Of a stretch of DNA of 64,000 nucleotides, positions 18,729 through 63,423 are shown piece after piece. A program made the translations under genes and the position numbers. Within the stretch, counting starts at the first letter, position 1, and every line of letters begins with the position of its first letter. The notes beneath the pieces were generated by a model, which was given only the letters and a program-made list of their open reading frames with translations, was not told the DNA's origin and searched no databases. This DNA is from a virus. Location: UHGV virus genome UHGV-1493261, one strand, 5' to 3'.

Positions 18729-19058
18729 TCAGAGATAAGATTTACCGAGTTCGGTCAGGCGATAGAACGTCACCTCAGTGTTCGGCCAGTTCACGTAAGA
18801 ACCGTCATGAACCATTGAGCCAGCTGGTTCAATCAACCCTTTGGACAACAGGGAAGCCCCAGTGCGGGGGTTGCCTTTGACGGAGGTGAAACCACCAGCG
18901 TTCGGGCATACCTGGAACGTCCAGACGGTGTTGCCCTTGTCATTGGTCCAGGATTTGGGATGAAAGTACCATTCACCATAACGGCAATGACCTTTCTCAA
19001 AGTTCAACATTCCTAAAAGGACGCAGAGTTGATGTCCTGTGATGCGTGGCTTTTTCAT
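18729..19058 (-). CDS. Hypothetical protein
   Basis: 109-aa ORF. Confidence 0.5.
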   Translation of the reverse strand: MKKPRITGHQLCVLLGMLNFEKGHCRYGEWYFHPKSWTNDKGNTVWTFQVCPNAGGFTSVKGNPRTGASLLSKGLIEPAGSMVHDGSYVNWPNTEVTFYRLTELGKSYL

Positions 19059-19255
19059 GACAATACTCCTTTCAGAGCTAAAACGGAAAGCACACCAATA
19101 ATCAACACAATCGGCCTGATATAATAACCCGTTTTAGTTTGCTTCAAGATACATGGAGAGGAGAAGCGCAGATATGGATCCCCTTTCCGGTAGCCTGTGA
19201 TTGTAACCTTCTGCACTTTATAAGGCACTTTTTGACCAGAAAAATAAATTTTCAT
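19055..19255 (-). CDS. Hypothetical small protein with C-terminal TM helix
   Basis: 66 aa; ends [18 protein letters not shown]. Confidence 0.45.
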
Positions 19256-20228: not shown

Positions 20229-20520
20229 GATCGTCTTCATCAGGGAATATACGCCATCGACCTATTCCATACCACTCACCGATAGAGTTCCACGTCCTTT
20301 CCCCAGGCCAGCCACCGACCGAGTAGTAATGCGCCACCAGCCGCCAGTAAGGAAGAGAGGCCGTGTTCACGCCGCCGTCGGCCTTTAGGCAGGCCAAGTA
20401 CCAATTCGTGAGACTGAACGCCTGAAATAACGGATGAAGGAACATGAAGTACAGGTAGCCCAATATGGCTGTGAATACCCCAGCTGTTACGATCACACCG
20501 ATGACAGTGAATACAATCAT
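20218..20520 (-). CDS. Hypothetical membrane protein
   Basis: 100 aa with two hydrophobic helices. Confidence 0.5.
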   Translation of the reverse strand: MIVFTVIGVIVTAGVFTAILGYLYFMFLHPLFQAFSLTNWYLACLKADGGVNTASLPYWRLVAHYYSVGGWPGERTWNSIGEWYGIGRWRIFPDEDDQAP

Positions 20521-21149
20521 CCCACAACCTCCAGTCCCATCAGATCTTCCATGGTCTTCTGAATACGCAGCCAGTCAAGCGCAGCGTCATAACGAGGGTC
20601 GTGATAGACCATACCTTCCAGTTCCCACGCCTTGATGCCAGCATACCGATCCTGCTGTCCAACACCCTTCAGCCAACTCACGATGTCGAACGTGTGGTGG
20701 TAATCCCATGGCTCGTTGGAGTCCTGCTTACACGTCACTTCAATGATGTGCTGAGCCTTGCGTAGATCGAACAAGTTACGGTCACACCAGTCAACCGAGC
20801 GCGGGTCTACCCCAAGACGATGACAACCCTTGCGGATTTCATCGGCCAATTGGAAGATAGAGATGTCATCTTCCTTGGGATACAGACTGACGGCGCGAGC
20901 CGCATCACACGGGTTGCGCTTGCCCGTGCCCAGCCACCATTCAACTGTCCCAGCGTCCTTCACGCGACCAAGTTCGAGCTGCTCTTTGACATTCAGCTTA
21001 ATGAACGTCGTGCGCTCCTCAACCAGCTGCTGAAGAGTATAACGCTTGGTCAGGTCGGCGATGGTGTGTGCCCAAGACAGCATGACTGCATCATCCCAGC
21101 GCCCCAGGGTTTCGCTGTCGGCCACAGCCAAAAAATTTGATTTATACAT
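20517..21149 (-). CDS. DEDDh-type 3'-5' exonuclease (DexA-like)
   Basis: 210 aa. Exo I AVADSETLG (D-x-E); Exo III YHDPRYDAAL (H-x4-D). Confidence 0.6.
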   Translation of the reverse strand: MYKSNFLAVADSETLGRWDDAVMLSWAHTIADLTKRYTLQQLVEERTTFIKLNVKEQLELGRVKDAGTVEWWLGTGKRNPCDAARAVSLYPKEDDISIFQLADEIRKGCHRLGVDPRSVDWCDRNLFDLRKAQHIIEVTCKQDSNEPWDYHHTFDIVSWLKGVGQQDRYAGIKAWELEGMVYHDPRYDAALDWLRIQKTMEDLMGLEVVG

Positions 21150-21393
21150 GTTTATTCTCCCAACACTTTATTTTGGCTTTTACTGTATAATAATTTTCAT
21201 CAATGAACTTTTTGTTGACGCGCTTAATTTCTATCTCTGGGCAAAGTAACCCTATAGTTTCCCTCAAAATCTGGCTCACCCTGGCCTGTGAAATACAATA
21301 AATTTCTGATACTTCTTTCGAACTAGATCCAGACATGACAAGTTTTAGAATATTGACCTTTTTATAAAATTCTTGATCAAACGCGCATATCAT
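21142..21393 (-). CDS. Small HTH protein (sigma-70 region 4 / LuxR-type helix-turn-helix)
   Basis: 83 aa; SSKEVSEIYCISQARVSQILRE resembles sigma region 4.2 / LuxR HTH. Gene is markedly AT-rich versus its neighbours. Confidence 0.45.
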   Translation of the reverse strand: MICAFDQEFYKKVNILKLVMSGSSSKEVSEIYCISQARVSQILRETIGLLCPEIEIKRVNKKFIDENYYTVKAKIKCWENKHV

Positions 21394-21396
21394 TAT

Positions 21397-21996
21397 TCAC
21401 CCCTCCTCGTCGATGATTTCTTGCTCATCTTCGACAATCATGATACCTTCTGTGTCTAGATGAGAAAGTTCCATCAGATCATCATCGAATCCGTCTCCTT
21501 CCCTGATATAGAAGACTGGGACGACACGGCGGCGGGTCTCTTCATACACGCTTTCAGAGATTCGATTGATATGGCGCACTACACTGTAGAGGTTCAGGCC
21601 ACCAATACCACAGCCGATAGCAGGCAGGCCGACATAGACAGTTTCGTCTTTAGTTGCTTCCACAATTTCATGCACCTGCTCAAACAGGGTCTGAACAGAA
21701 CTGATGACTGACGGCATTCGAGCGTTCGGGCCTGGATAAAACTGAGTGTAGAGGTTCGCACCCCAGACACCAGTGCTATGGTCAAATGCATAGGACATGC
21801 CACCCAGGCGTTGCTCTGGACCACGAGGGTCGTTCGCATCGACTTCGCGCAGCGCTGGGAAGTTGTTGCCGATGTGCAGGGCAATACCCGCGCCCATGGT
21901 AGACCAACAGTTGGCACCGTGGGCAAAGATGTCGATCAGATTGAAGCTACAGGCGGCTTTCAGTAAATCGCCGCCATTGATTACATAGGCTGTCAT
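21397..21996 (-). CDS. Macro-domain (ADP-ribose-binding/processing) protein
   Basis: N-terminal INGGDLLKAACSFNLIDIFAHGANCWSTMGAGIA parallels the macro-domain GD-x7-DAIVNAAN-x5-GGG signature. Start set at the ATG forming an ATGA overlap with the upstream stop. Confidence 0.5.
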   Translation of the reverse strand: MTAYVINGGDLLKAACSFNLIDIFAHGANCWSTMGAGIALHIGNNFPALREVDANDPRGPEQRLGGMSYAFDHSTGVWGANLYTQFYPGPNARMPSVISSVQTLFEQVHEIVEATKDETVYVGLPAIGCGIGGLNLYSVVRHINRISESVYEETRRRVVPVFYIREGDGFDDDLMELSHLDTEGIMIVEDEQEIIDEEG

Positions 21997-22235
21997 GCGT
22001 ACTGTCTCCATTCAATAATGCTGTTGTCAACACATGACACCTGGATGATGCCTGTGCGGTGGTGATAATCAGTCATCTGCATGATAAAGTTGTTCCCATT
22101 GCGGATAATGGTGTTGACAACGATACCCTTGGCAGCAAGGCGTATTACAATGGCAGTGCAAAGGCGGTCCATGTAACCGGACACAGAACCTGGTTCGAAG
22201 CATCGCTCGAACAGATTTTCAAATTCTGGGCTCAT
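21993..22235 (-). CDS. Hypothetical protein
   Basis: 80-aa ORF translationally coupled to the macro-domain gene. Confidence 0.5.
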   Translation of the reverse strand: MSPEFENLFERCFEPGSVSGYMDRLCTAIVIRLAAKGIVVNTIIRNGNNFIMQMTDYHHRTGIIQVSCVDNSIIEWRQYA

Positions 22236-22698: not shown

Positions 22699-22977
22699 TC
22701 TATTCAATCCAAATTTCAGGTTCAGAGATGTCAACCATATCCACTGTCTGGTTCTTCAGATCATGGAAACAGTCGCCGAGGAATTGTATTTTGCCGTCGG
22801 TCAGGAACAGATGGCAAATGATGCTGGATCAGTTGCATTCACCAGCAGGCTCGGTGTGAACGTAGGCTCAATAACATTGTTGTTCCACGACCACATCGGA
22901 CCTTGGGTTTCGCCCTTAATGCGATATAGATGAAGTATACCACACCCAGGACAATGAAAATACAAGGAATCATCCAT
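22699..22977 (-). pseudogene. Candidate frameshifted small Cys-containing gene (Zn-ribbon-like)
   Basis: 58-codon ORF (MDDSLYFHCPGCGILHLY...AICS, stop at 22801) is followed in the -1 frame by a 35-codon open stretch without a start (…LTDGKIQFLGDCFHDLKNQTVDMVDISEPEIWIE) ending 2 nt before the next gene. Confidence 0.3.
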
Positions 22978-23012
22978 AGACAGAAGTTTAGGGCTCAGAA
23001 GCTATGTTATGA

Positions 23013-23300
23013 TCAACCATCTACAGTGGCTTCAGGATCGTAGGGGCGCAGTTCACCAACCAGTTTCGGAAAGAGTGCAAGCCCGAACAGGTTGAAAGAA
23101 CGCATAGTGCCTACCATTGCAACATCTTCCCCTTCCTCGATATCTTTCAGGGCGCACATTGGATAATATTCATCGACCTCTGGGTCTTCCGTCTCACCAT
23201 AGAGACCAAACGCCACCTCCTCTTTGATAAAGCGAGGAACCAGGAAATCAAATAGGATAATGATGAATACTATAGGTGCTGCAGAACGGAAATAGAACAT
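23013..23300 (-). CDS. Hypothetical membrane protein
   Basis: 95 aa with N-terminal hydrophobic segment; GGAGGG RBS preceded by a GGAGGGG-CGAA-CCCCTCC hairpin. Confidence 0.5.
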   Translation of the reverse strand: MFYFRSAAPIVFIIILFDFLVPRFIKEEVAFGLYGETEDPEVDEYYPMCALKDIEEGEDVAMVGTMRSFNLFGLALFPKLVGELRPYDPEATVDG

Positions 23301-23341
23301 AGCACAACCCTCCAGGTGAGGAGGGGCGAACCCCTCCGATG

Positions 23342-45641: not shown

Positions 45642-46824
45642 CGCTTGTGTTCAGGGATGCTCGCTATTTCATCCCCCGTGTTCGTCATTCAGTTTACCGA
45701 ACACTGCTGTATGTCACCATACAGGCCAGACTATATCACAATCTCCAGAACTGTCTAGAGATTCTCTCCATTTCGAGGCGCTTGCCCCTACTCTACTCGC
45801 TTCAGATCAGACGCTTAGTCGTCGGTCTTGCTTTCGATAGTCGTTGAACCTTGTCACCCACTACTTCAAGGAAATCATCTGGGTTTAACCCAGCGTAACC
45901 AAAGAGTCGTTTGAAGTTTCTTGCCAACTTGCCCCACTCTACAGTCTTCTTACCTAAATCCTGTTGTGTCAAGCAATGAGCGGTTATTTCTTCCCCACTC
46001 ATTCTGGCAAACATTTCCTTCCTTTTCTCTAAAGAATCTTTAAATTTCTTCTTCGCTTTCGGATCGGCGTTTGGTCCCACCTGGCCTTTCTTTGCGCCTA
46101 TTATACATTTCAACTCACCACTCAAATATCTCGGGTCTTGCGTTGAAACTTTGATAACACTACCATCCAGGAGTCTTACGGGGACAGTGCCTTTGTGAAC
46201 AAGACTGGAATTGGCTTTAATTCTTTCAGCTGTTTCTTTATCAGCGCCGAAATAAGCCTTACCCTTCATATCTGCCCTTTTAACACCCTTCTTAGATTTG
46301 GATATCTTTCTTCTGACATCTTCCCTCTTCGAAGGATTCCCTTCTCCCGTCAACATTTCAACATTCTTTCTTCTCAATTCCTCACTTAGTTCCCCGTTAT
46401 GGGATTTCATCATGAAGTAGGCGAAGAACGCTGATTTATCTTCTGGTAATGCTTCATGCAATAGGCGATGAGCCTCCACATGATCTTTGTACAACAGGTT
46501 TACGATATTCCATTCTTCTTTAGAGAACTCAGGATAATGCGCCTGGGGCAGTATATGATGGTGCTCACTGTATTCATCACCATCATAACTGTGTTCCTCA
46601 CAGAACTTCAAATATTCTTCTATCTTAGATTCTTCAATTACCAAATCATTTCGATAGAACAGACTCTTGATTTCCTTCATGACCTTACTCCTTCACCGTG
46701 GTTACAGAGTATTTAGGTCTTCGTGGCCGACCTTGGCTGCTGATTATCTCTAAAGAGACTTCCCAGCAATTAAGAGAGTTATTCGATGGTTGTCGCCAAC
46801 CAAAGCCCCTATGCTGCTAACTTA
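45642..46824 (-). mobile_element. Group I intron (inferred) in the DNA polymerase gene, carrying an HNH homing endonuclease
   Basis: Exon 1 stops 5 codons after DLNSL; exon 2 resumes at YPHII. Boundaries placed so the 5' exon ends in U and the intron ends in G, giving DLNSLYPHII. GATATAGTC (S-element-like) lies near the 3' end. Confidence 0.6.
45802..46680 (-). CDS. HNH homing endonuclease (intron-encoded)
   Basis: 292 aa. HNH motif HHILPQAHYPEF...NIVNLLYKDHVEAH; Lys-rich C-terminal DNA-binding region. Confidence 0.75.
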   Translation of the reverse strand: MKEIKSLFYRNDLVIEESKIEEYLKFCEEHSYDGDEYSEHHHILPQAHYPEFSKEEWNIVNLLYKDHVEAHRLLHEALPEDKSAFFAYFMMKSHNGELSEELRRKNVEMLTGEGNPSKREDVRRKISKSKKGVKRADMKGKAYFGADKETAERIKANSSLVHKGTVPVRLLDGSVIKVSTQDPRYLSGELKCIIGAKKGQVGPNADPKAKKKFKDSLEKRKEMFARMSGEEITAHCLTQQDLGKKTVEWGKLARNFKRLFGYAGLNPDDFLEVVGDKVQRLSKARPTTKRLI

Positions 46825-55490: not shown

Positions 55491-56060
55491 TTATTTTAAC
55501 ACTTCTAACTTCACAATACGACGCAGAAGGTAAACATATTCGCCAGCAGCTTCATGCGTCATATAATGGGTAGAAGGTGTGGAATGAGTGTTCTGGGTTT
55601 CTTTTAATCCAACGCGTTCAGCCCAACCATTAATAGAGTTCCCATAGAAACCGATAATCGCGCCAAAATAAATGCGCCCGCTTTCTGGCTCTAAAACATA
55701 GTTGACAGTGAAGCAAATGTCAGAACGAATAGACTCCAGTTTCATACCAACACGACCTTCAGAGAATTCGTTACGAACATATAAATGACGGAAGCGATCG
55801 CGCCGTGCTTGTGATGATTCTTCCAATTCTTGTCGAAGTGAAGAAGTTATGTCAATATTAAATGAAAATGTTGGATTTCGTAAATCAGAACGGGCCAACT
55901 CTAACGCAGATTCAATAACGCGACGGAAATTGATACTTTTACCTGTCAGGCGTTTCACTTCATCGGTGATTGTTCCAAAAGGGATTTTCGTGGCGTGTTC
56001 CCCTTCGTATTTTGCTAACAAAGGAATAATGTGTTTCATGATTGCTGTGTTAATGTGCAT
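55491..56060 (-). CDS. Hypothetical protein (AT-rich gene)
   Basis: 189-aa ORF in an AT-rich segment between the RNA island and the late structural genes. Confidence 0.45.
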   Translation of the reverse strand: MHINTAIMKHIIPLLAKYEGEHATKIPFGTITDEVKRLTGKSINFRRVIESALELARSDLRNPTFSFNIDITSSLRQELEESSQARRDRFRHLYVRNEFSEGRVGMKLESIRSDICFTVNYVLEPESGRIYFGAIIGFYGNSINGWAERVGLKETQNTHSTPSTHYMTHEAAGEYVYLLRRIVKLEVLK

Positions 56061-60282: not shown

Positions 60283-63200
60283 ATGGCCAACAAACCAACA
60301 CAGCCTCTTTTCCCTTTGGGTTTAGAAACTTCTGAGTCTTCGAATATAAAAGGCTTCAACAACTCCGGCACTATTGAGCATTCCCATGGTGCCGTAATGA
60401 CATTTCCTGAAGATACTGAAGTTACAGGTCTTCCATCTTCTGTACGTTACAATCCTGATAGTGATGAATTCGAAGGTTATTACGAAAATGGTGGTTGGTT
60501 GCCGCTGGGTGGCGGTGGCATCCGCTGGGAAGTCCTTCCGCATGCCTCTACGGCAACGCTCACTGAAGGGCGAGGCTATCTCATTAATAATACCACAGGG
60601 GCATCTACAGTGGTTCTCCCTTCCCCTACGCGTATTGGGGATTCCGTTACTATTTGTGACGCTTATGGGAAATTTGCCACTTACCCATTGACCGTGTCTC
60701 CTTCTGGAAATAATTTGTATGGCTCCACTGAAGACATGGCTATAACAACTGATAACGTATCAGCAACGTTCACTTGGTCTGGACCTGAACAAGGTTGGAT
60801 TATTACATCCGGCGTCGGTCTTGGCCAAGGTCGTGTCTACAGTCGTGAAATCTTTACAAAAATTTTGGCGTCTGAAACAAGTTCTGTCGCTCTCAATACC
60901 CCACCAACAATCGTGGACGTGTATGCTGATGGAAAACGTCTTGCGGAATCCAAATATTCACTAGATGGGAATGTAATCATTTTCAGTCCTTCTTTGCCAG
61001 CCAGCACAGAACTTCAGGTGATTGAATATACTCCTATTCAATTGGGTATTGGGGATGGTTCTGGCTCTTCCACGATTACCTGGGTCTATAATGGGGGTTC
61101 AGCGATTGGTGGTGAAACCGAAATCACGTTGGACGTCGTTGTTGATGATGTTCCGGCCATTGATATAAACGGAAGTCGCCAGTATAAAAATCTGGGATTC
61201 ACATTCGATCCATTAACCAGTAAAATCTCTCTTGCACAAGAACTGGAACCAGAGGATGAAGTTGTTGTAATTATCAATGGAACACCAAACATCTATAATC
61301 AAATTGATTATACTTTGCGGGAAGTTGCTCGTGTAACCAATGTTAAAGATACAGAGGTCGTTTATTTTAGTGTTGGTGCTGCGTTAAGTGGGTATAAAGT
61401 TATTTATGACAAGGAGACGCAAAGGGCTTATCCCTTGCCTGCTGATATTGTCCCTGGTACTACTGCTGTCAGTCTTAGTTCTTCCGCTGTACTTGTACAT
61501 TCAGCGGGTTCTGTAGATCTCGGGGAATTGGCTGTATCTCGTGAAGAGTACGTCACATTGTCCGGGTCATTTGATACCGGTGTAACAGTTAATACCAAGA
61601 ATGAACTGGTTGTCTTTACTGACGGCAAGTACCGTTGGGATGGGGTGTTGCCTAAAGAAGTTTCTGCTGGTTCAACCCCTTCGACAACTGGTGGAATTGG
61701 TTTAGGGAAGTGGGTTAGTGTTGGCGATGCATCACTTAGATCAGAGTTGTCAAAAAGTGATGGTTTTTTATTGATTGGTGGACTGAAAGAAACATTTTAT
61801 CGAACATTTGATAACATCCAAATCATGAAGTCAGATGATAATCTAAAAGATGGGGATGTAGTTTCAACCAAGGGGTTTTATACAAAAGGTGATTTAGGTG
61901 GTTCGACATACCGAATAACAGCATCTGCTACGGCGGATGGTTGTAATGTGATTGCATTAGATAACGGTTTGTTCGCAGTTAACACTAAAACCCGCGTGCG
62001 TATCCAAGAGTTGGGGGTAGTAGATAACCCATCCGTGGATCAGTCTGCAATATTTAACACAGCTATGTCATACGCTGGTGGGGAAGTTATCATTGATGGT
62101 ATCTCAATTTTACTTACAGCAACCGTAACAGTTGCACGGTCTATGCATTGCGTGAACGGGGGGAAACTAATAACTACCTCAAGTACATACGCAAATATTG
62201 TGAGGATTTCAAAGGATAACGGATTTTTCACTTTAAACATAGACGCTAATAAAGCGGCGTGTATGCCAGTCAGGGTGACAGGGAACGGTAATAAATTTAC
62301 AGCAATTTCCATTACTGGACTTTATGCACCTTCTGGTTCCGGGACGGGAGTTATTGGAGTCCAGTTTCAGGGGTCTAATAATGTCGTGGATTCTATTGTT
62401 GGTTCTGACTGTGTAAACACCGGAAACACAAACGCGTCAATGCCGCAGTTGTTTATGTTCTATGATGGTTCTAAGAATAACTACATAGGGTCTGTGTATG
62501 CCTCTGGGTGCTGCTCTATTTTAAACTCAGCACAAGATATAGAAGTTACGGTGGGCAGGATGTATCTTGTTGACTGCCAGGACAATGGGATATATGGCGG
62601 TGGGCGTATTCATGTCGATTACTTCCATTACGATGGTAGTGAGGAAGCAATCGCTGGCTCATCCCTAGCGGACCTTACCATAACTTACGCAGAAGTTGGT
62701 GGTGAAGGGCTTGGTGCAGTTTCGTATGCCGATATGACCCGTATGAGCATAGACCATTTGCACATATTTAGGGGTACGGATGGGGATACCCCAAAATCAG
62801 TGGTAAATGCCCGAACAGTCGTCACAACGGCTGGCGTATTATCTATTGGGCGTTTAACAGGTGAGATTGAAGGTGTACGTCTTTTTTCATGCGACAAAGG
62901 TATGTTAAATCAGTTTATTCTTGGGGCGTGCGATATTTTGTTTGTATATAACGCTTCCCGTATGAACGAGCGGATAGCCGACATACGCAACGTCAGGTCG
63001 TTTCGTATCGGCGACATGAGCGTGAGATTTTGGGATAAAGGTAATGCTTTGGCTAGTACATCCCTTAATGTACCCTTTGATTTCCCTGTTTCCCCGTCAG
63101 CACCGAGCACATTAAACAGTCTTAACTTCATCGGTTTGATGGTTGACCAGGCAACACCTCAGCCGAATGTAACATTTCAAGGGCGCGGTCTGAGAAACTC

Positions 63201-63423
63201 TAATGTATATGTCAGACACGGTTTATGGCAGACAAATATTGGGCCATACCTGCGAGAAATGACTTATTCGCTAGGCTACAACGGGGATAATGGGATACAA
63301 CAAACACCGACAACGGGATACTGGCGTAAAGGTGAAGATTTTGCACTCATAAACGCTACTGCGGCTCCATTCCGGTTAAGGTGCACCGTATCTGGCACAC
63401 CAGGTACTTTTGTTGCCTATTAA
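60283..63423 (+). CDS. Tail spike protein (long form with N-terminal anchor domains and C-terminal beta-helix)
   Basis: 1046 aa. Residues ~360-490 are near-identical to the N-terminus of the next gene; C-terminal half is beta-helix-like and Gly/Asn/Val-rich. Confidence 0.65.
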   Translation: MANKPTQPLFPLGLETSESSNIKGFNNSGTIEHSHGAVMTFPEDTEVTGLPSSVRYNPDSDEFEGYYENGGWLPLGGGGIRWEVLPHASTATLTEGRGYLINNTTGASTVVLPSPTRIGDSVTICDAYGKFATYPLTVSPSGNNLYGSTEDMAITTDNVSATFTWSGPEQGWIITSGVGLGQGRVYSREIFTKILASETSSVALNTPPTIVDVYADGKRLAESKYSLDGNVIIFSPSLPASTELQVIEYTPIQLGIGDGSGSSTITWVYNGGSAIGGETEITLDVVVDDVPAIDINGSRQYKNLGFTFDPLTSKISLAQELEPEDEVVVIINGTPNIYNQIDYTLREVARVTNVKDTEVVYFSVGAALSGYKVIYDKETQRAYPLPADIVPGTTAVSLSSSAVLVHSAGSVDLGELAVSREEYVTLSGSFDTGVTVNTKNELVVFTDGKYRWDGVLPKEVSAGSTPSTTGGIGLGKWVSVGDASLRSELSKSDGFLLIGGLKETFYRTFDNIQIMKSDDNLKDGDVVSTKGFYTKGDLGGSTYRITASATADGCNVIALDNGLFAVNTKTRVRIQELGVVDNPSVDQSAIFNTAMSYAGGEVIIDGISILLTATVTVARSMHCVNGGKLITTSSTYANIVRISKDNGFFTLNIDANKAACMPVRVTGNGNKFTAISITGLYAPSGSGTGVIGVQFQGSNNVVDSIVGSDCVNTGNTNASMPQLFMFYDGSKNNYIGSVYASGCCSILNSAQDIEVTVGRMYLVDCQDNGIYGGGRIHVDYFHYDGSEEAIAGSSLADLTITYAEVGGEGLGAVSYADMTRMSIDHLHIFRGTDGDTPKSVVNARTVVTTAGVLSIGRLTGEIEGVRLFSCDKGMLNQFILGACDILFVYNASRMNERIADIRNVRSFRIGDMSVRFWDKGNALASTSLNVPFDFPVSPSAPSTLNSLNFIGLMVDQATPQPNVTFQGRGLRNSNVYVRHGLWQTNIGPYLREMTYSLGYNGDNGIQQTPTTGYWRKGEDFALINATAAPFRLRCTVSGTPGTFVAY

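Follow-up and report, generated by a model that had tools for sequence, protein, structure and literature searches.

In this study, we analysed ORF83, a short gene of the virus genome UHGV-1493261, within a stretch of 64,000 nucleotides (hereafter the window). The window derives from an Agtrevirus-like phage of the Ackermannviridae, the region considered here being ~97% identical to Escherichia phage AV101 and to vB_EcoA_4HA11, and homologous stretches of it are present in 148 phage records. In the stretch around ORF83 every gene lies on the minus strand and is of T4-early type, the order being topoisomerase subunit, Arn.3/Y16D-like, DUF7234, Tk.4, ORF83, DexA exonuclease, YunG-like and phosphoesterase. 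The ORF list of the window gives ORF83 as 83 codons from ATG to TAA, placed exactly between two conserved genes:

20517 to 21149, minus strand: dexA-type exonuclease gene, the downstream flank (phrog_255, E 1e-53; annotations of relatives).
21142 to 21393, minus strand: ORF83 coding sequence, 83 aa, 9.7 kDa, pI 8.9 (ORF list, AF2, segregating sites).
21397 to 22011, minus strand: Tk.4/macro-like gene, the upstream flank (phrog_335, E 4e-63; sub-threshold Macro match; annotations of relatives).

On the gene strand, the surroundings of ORF83 contain neither a sigma-70-like promoter nor a terminator, and its transcription within a T4-early-like operon is inferred from this. The Macro-domain match of the Tk.4 gene is below threshold (16.5 versus 22 bits), and its counterpart in phage ChubbyThor is labelled 'ADP-ribose binding'; at one metagenomic locus, L018, the gene is cut to 106 aa and is just 70% identical. 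T4-like genomes are typically built with plastic slots between their conserved early genes. Another such spot lies between the Arn.3/Y16D-like and topoisomerase genes, where small BubE-like (PF20137) ORFs (~22700-23340 in the window and ~1400-1700 in L009-L018) range from 45 to 104 aa or are missing among close relatives. A truncation polymorphism is also evident in a 66-aa ORF at 19055-19255 on the minus strand (GC 0.393), which matches positions 1-60 only of the 107-position DUF7618 profile and is found in relatives as a 105-aa or the same 66-aa version.

The sequence-only reading had described ORF83 as more AT-rich than both of its neighbours, which proved to be so: its GC content is 0.329, compared with 0.546 for dexA and 0.519 for tk.4. 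This is the lowest value among the 86 non-overlapping ORFs (mean 0.488, sd 0.037), and it is well outside the normal range of the genome when set against all 252-nt windows of the 64 kb (mean 0.490, sd 0.041; z = -3.9), 0.04% of which are as low, with the global minimum of the 64 kb falling at the ORF83 site. All three codon positions are depressed (GC1 0.37, GC2 0.27 and GC3 0.35, the window mean for GC3 being 0.55). Low values also occur elsewhere in the window. A 292-aa HNH ORF at 45802-46680 on the minus strand (GC 0.416; phrog_12434, E 4e-160) is, after ORF83, a second gene of deviant composition that is probably mobile, and it is the nearest homing endonuclease to the islet, 24 kb away. 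A 189-aa ORF at 55491-56060 on the minus strand (GC 0.407, GC3 0.347) has third positions as low as those of ORF83 and matches phrog_3788, of unknown function, over its full length, with no match in Pfam. A 1046-aa ORF at 60283-63423 on the plus strand has a GC3 of 0.37 and sits where tail-spike genes are expected.

Comparison of related phages revealed that the slot between tk.4 and dexA has three allelic states: empty, filled by an alternative occupant, or filled by ORF83. The gene is present in four of the 148 related phage records and absent from the other 144, and a search of 50,697 phage records found it encoded by four Ackermannviridae (AV101, 4HA11 and the Kutterviruses SilasIsHot and KE31), with no match to ORF83 beyond them. 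Where the slot is empty (YX22 and Gloob), the tk.4 stop codon is directly adjacent to the dexA ATG or overlaps with it. The alternative occupant is an unrelated gene of 114-131 aa and normal GC content, found in P46FS4 (L006 2133-2513), EspM4VN (L019 920-1315), maane (L020 926-1270) and CAU_YEP3 (L021 910-1305). We rejected the notion of four different cargoes at the slot, as these occupants all belong to one family, of unknown function (MRKPVTEEMLAKAAL...).

The ORF83 insert is ~247 bp long and is filled wholly by the 83-aa helix-turn-helix (HTH) ORF. When the occupied copies were compared with the two empty sites, the junctions proved to be identical in all 14 occupied copies examined, with the following features:

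21400 to 21408, minus strand: GAGGAGGGG, a Shine-Dalgarno sequence within the 3' end of tk.4 (sequence; occupied versus empty junctions).
21397 to 21399, minus strand: tk.4 stop codon TGA, separated from the ORF83 ATG by ATA.
21156 to 21161, minus strand: GGGAGA, a Shine-Dalgarno sequence that the 3' end of ORF83 provides for dexA, conserved in all occupied copies.
21142 to 21149, minus strand: ATGTATAA, the overlap of the dexA start codon (21147-21149) with the ORF83 stop codon (21142-21144).
21129 to 21146, minus strand: dexA codons 2-7, in which synonymous codons are shifted towards AT (junction comparison).

The GAGGAGG element serves dexA in the empty-site phages and ORF83 in the occupied copies. 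The start/stop overlap implies, so far as sequence can tell, that translation of ORF83 and dexA is coupled. Codons 2-7 of dexA read TAT AAA TCA AAT TTT TTG alongside the islet and TAC AAG TCT AAT TTC CTT/TTG at the empty sites, and this AT-shift is found in every occupied copy; the moving unit therefore reaches ~20 nt into dexA. The TATAAAT that these codons create at the dexA start was considered as a T4-type late promoter and discarded, TATAAATA occurring once in 64 kb, as expected by chance; nor is the T4-type late promoter motif enriched in the window. No inverted or direct repeats were found flanking the islet, and an IS or MITE was rejected on the grounds that there are no terminal repeats or target-site duplication and that the islet is always in one slot. 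Presence/absence polymorphism at a fixed slot, deviant composition and dispensability are the marks of a phage accessory ('moron'-like) cassette, and ORF83 has all three. Classical morons have their own promoter and terminator, whereas the ORF83 cassette has neither.

The reading frame of ORF83 was intact in each of the 14 copies examined, among which there are 12 segregating sites, nine of them synonymous and three non-synonymous (per-site non-synonymous/synonymous ratio ~0.08). Within this set of copies, that pattern shows ORF83 to be under purifying selection, and the synonymous excess together with the precise translational coupling therefore identifies it as a functional gene. We also considered whether the AT-rich DNA is itself the functional element, as a promoter, origin, recombination hotspot or small RNA, with the ORF being incidental. 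An open frame this long arises in 1.6% of shuffles of the same composition when all six frames are counted, so the ORF alone is not overwhelming evidence. The synonymous excess and the exact start/stop coupling nevertheless speak against that reading, as do a confident protein fold, the lack of flanking repeats or of any promoter- or terminator-like site on the gene strand, and an Rfam search of the islet that returned no match, and we regard it as improbable in the extreme.

Copies of the islet are 98.4-100% identical to one another and lie within flanks that are considerably more diverged. In SilasIsHot the flanking dexA and tk.4 genes are 86% and 80% identical, respectively, and in several metagenomic backgrounds that carry the islet tk.4 is 70-88% identical. 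Sliding identity places the approximate bounds of the shared segment as follows:

21050 to 21600: approximate recombination tract of ~550 bp, with 96-100% identity to Kuttervirus SilasIsHot versus 54-90% in the background.

KE31 has a mosaic unlike that of SilasIsHot, its right flank diverging straight after the islet. Public assemblies contain 109 indexed blocks with the exact ORF83 protein, and in all ten contexts listed from these assemblies it is located in the tk.4-dexA slot. A near-identical islet in diverged flanks, together with the ~550-bp tract, therefore points to recent lateral transfer by homologous recombination. These comparisons indicate that ORF83 spread between lineages recently, by recombination through the conserved flanks during co-infection. 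Recent acquisition, previously suggested from composition, is thus upheld by the insertion polymorphism and by 98-100% identical copies within flanking genes that are 70-86% identical. No match to a donor was obtained by blastn of 5,426 E. coli genomes or by tblastn of 72,556 plasmids.

In the explanation that we favour, a laterally spreading accessory cassette of ~250-270 bp would have come from an AT-rich donor into an Ackermannviridae phage, to be placed precisely between the tk.4 stop and dexA start codons. It would take over the old ribosome-binding site of dexA and bring dexA a new one, plus the stop/start overlap, and ORF83 would be expressed within a T4-early-like DNA-metabolism operon with no promoter of its own. 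Movement of the cassette between Agtrevirus-like phages and Kutterviruses would depend on homologous recombination at its flanks and involve no nuclease or transposase of its own. Searches of Pfam, PHROGs and NCBIfam found no nuclease family match in ORF83, and the insert carries neither nuclease nor transposase. A free-standing homing endonuclease was accordingly dismissed, ORF83 having no HNH, GIY-YIG, LAGLIDADG or other nuclease domain.

ORF83 might instead be a selfish or neutral passenger, either the relic DNA-binding domain of a degraded homing endonuclease or a gene kept only by hitch-hiking and frequent recombination. Few isolates carry it; tblastn gave a weak match (E 8e-3) within a Streptomyces-phage ORF labelled as a LAGLIDADG endonuclease; and the genome has homing endonucleases, for example the HNH ORF at 45802-46680, which are variable among Agtrevirus (PMC10791037). 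Yet the 247-bp insert contains a single ORF and no trace of a nuclease, the ORF is unbroken in all 14 copies (non-synonymous/synonymous ratio ~0.08), and it is coupled precisely to both neighbours. Moreover, 99-100% identity in many divergent backgrounds is more like a sweep than decay. On this balance a passenger seems quite unlikely, and we conclude with high confidence that ORF83 is a functional, recently acquired accessory HTH gene.

The predicted structure of ORF83 consists of a three-helix HTH (residues 4-20, 25-32 and 36-50), a loop (51-60) and a long C-terminal helix (61-82). With a 7-sequence alignment, AF2 gave pLDDT values of 86-91 in all five models, superseding a single-sequence run in which one model of five was confident, and an independent BFVD model of the protein superposes at a TM of 0.98. 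The modelled HTH has the fold of sigma region 4 (4.1/4.2). Apart from the self match, Foldseek matches were throughout at E 0.1 or higher. The recognition helix retains R and Q, which are typical of DNA-contacting positions, and the net charge of the protein is only +4. Four of the 83 residues are cysteines (codons 3, 33, 51 and 77), and at codons 3 and 33 the copies differ only in using TGT or TGC.

At the sequence level, the matches of ORF83 to curated families all fall short of their cut-offs: Sigma70_r4 (PF04545) scored 16.5 bits (E 0.0061; cut-off 24.1), GerE (PF00196) 16.4 bits (E 0.0073; cut-off 23.5), HTH_28 15.2 bits (cut-off 25), HTH_23 14.1 bits (cut-off 24.6) and TIGR02937 19.9 bits (cut-off 42.9). 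Its PHROG matches are to sigma-factor families (E 0.002-0.05), and a profile search of PDB sequences returned RhlR (E 0.005) and WhiG (E 0.019). The initial description of the protein as mostly an HTH like sigma-70 region 4.2 therefore holds in part: the HTH, at residues ~4-50, makes up ~57% of the protein, but the family scores are below threshold. ORF83 is a stand-alone HTH protein of the sigma region 4/LuxR structural class that is assignable to neither curated family. A sigma factor was rejected, there being no regions 2 or 3 and the Sigma70_r4 score lying under the gathering threshold. An Aca HTH repressor was also set aside, as ORF83 is a one-gene insert flanked directly by conserved tk.4 and dexA and has no promoter-like site. 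Searches against the PADLOC defence models at E up to 1 gave no family match, and a search for literature specific to the gene found nothing.

Relatives of the protein are few. A word-indexed search of 5.8 billion proteins recovered the ORF83 cluster only, and exhaustive HMMER of 1.84 billion representatives found four other proteins, three of which are tandem HTH repeats; there is therefore no family alignment of real depth. The closest relative, P0005, is 58% identical over 38 aa, including the segment SEIYC[IL]SQAR[VI]SQI, and represents the region 4 portion, positive for PF04545, of a sigma gene on a bacterial contig of 34.7% GC. Once its pieces are rejoined, this sigma gene passes the sigma-70 superfamily cut-off and is most like FliA/WhiG. 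The gene (L007 9565-10195, L008 3506-4136) is divided by a frame change into region 2 and region 4 ORFs, and as the division is the same in two independent samples, it may reflect a pseudogene, programmed frameshifting or an assembly feature common to both.

HTHs of the region 4 type can act by protein contacts alone; sigma region 4, for example, contacts both the beta flap and anti-sigma factors. ORF83 could accordingly be a mimic or decoy of sigma region 4 that re-tunes host transcription early in infection through protein contacts and not DNA binding; it may compete with host sigma region 4 for the beta-flap tip of RNA polymerase, or titrate a region-4-binding factor (an anti-sigma factor such as FlgM or Rsd, or an activator). 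Against this, the sigma matches are all sub-threshold and LuxR-type DNA binders match equally well, the DNA-contacting R and Q are retained in the recognition helix, and tblastn at E up to 10 revealed no T4 protein similar to ORF83. We consider such a decoy unlikely. A more specific form is that ORF83 is a captured FliA/sigma-28-type region 4, an orphan module that would dock on the beta flap or titrate an anti-sigma factor and so reprogram transcription, the near-identical copies in divergent Agtrevirus-like and Kuttervirus genomes recording an ongoing selective sweep; this is doubtful still.

It had also been proposed that ORF83 might be a middle or late transcription co-factor. As a core factor needed for the temporal programme of the phage this is very improbable, with the sigma-like HTH being the sole point in its favour. 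In opposition to it, the 144 related phages without the gene are viable isolates, the operon is composed of T4-early-type genes, and T4-type late promoters show no enrichment. Since ~97% of the related isolates are without the gene, a core role can in effect be set aside. The islet transfers alone within the ~550-bp tract, and its function is therefore independent of any co-transferred partner.

Returning to the accessory cassette, its product would be a small, basic, dispensable transcription regulator that binds DNA in a sequence-specific manner via the HTH and probably forms an oligomer via the C-terminal helix. It would adjust the use of host, competitor-phage or phage promoters early in infection. 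We place action as a DNA-binding regulator at about even or marginally better, and the whole explanation, acquired mobile cassette and regulatory mechanism together, is somewhat favoured. Set against the latter are the failure of ORF83 to reach any curated family threshold, the weak Foldseek E-values, a net charge of just +4, the lack of an operator that could be proposed, and the possibility that its spread reflects hitch-hiking and not benefit.

Several known systems offer points of comparison. ORF83 differs from sigma-70 region 4 (4.1-4.2), especially that of the group 3 factors FliA and WhiG, by an extra C-terminal helix of 30 residues, and from stand-alone LuxR/GerE-type regulators such as B. 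subtilis GerE (74 aa) in having a far longer fourth helix, set off by a loop of 10 residues. Among small HTH regulators of phages and plasmids, Mu Mor and C, R388 ArdK, KorA and T7 Gp5.7 have no sequence similarity to ORF83 and differ in their dimerisation elements; Foldseek E-values for this group were 0.2 or higher, with a large rmsd for full-length matches. T7 Gp5.7 is a very small HTH-like DNA binder that represses promoters of the host polymerase (PMC5569994). The T4 host-takeover genes mrh, srh, srd and motB are non-essential small early genes of the plastic delta-12 region whose products modulate sigma-dependent transcription or bind DNA (PMC6070864). They provide a precedent for dispensable early regulators, although they belong to another phage family and have no sequence similarity to ORF83. 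The 74-aa 'sigma-70 region 4 domain-containing' protein of the Enterococcus phage EfV12-phi1 is, like ORF83, stand-alone, such proteins being ~75-80 aa long, but the structural match is weak (E 0.27-0.32) and by exhaustive HMMER proteins of this type are not sequence relatives of ORF83.

Phage genomes commonly encode small HTH proteins that stand alone and resemble region 4 or LuxR, annotated by domain only, and the comparative work on AV101 describes several variable genes as hypothetical and homing nucleases as varying (PMC10791037; PMC11721090). ORF83 is a real and fairly ordinary accessory gene, a small hypothetical regulator of a common type. Of interest are the clear trace of a recombination tract, the remodelled translational signals and the possible capture of a sigma-28-type region 4. 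The locus represents a clean, datable transfer of a single-gene cassette between phage genera, with translational signals remade at either junction. AV101 and other Ackermannviridae phages are under development for biocontrol of ESBL E. coli and Salmonella, and an early HTH gene that varies among such phages could influence how they take over the host, which hosts they infect or how they compete with one another. If ORF83 does prove to act on RNA polymerase as a free region-4 module, it would represent a new class of phage transcription modifier.
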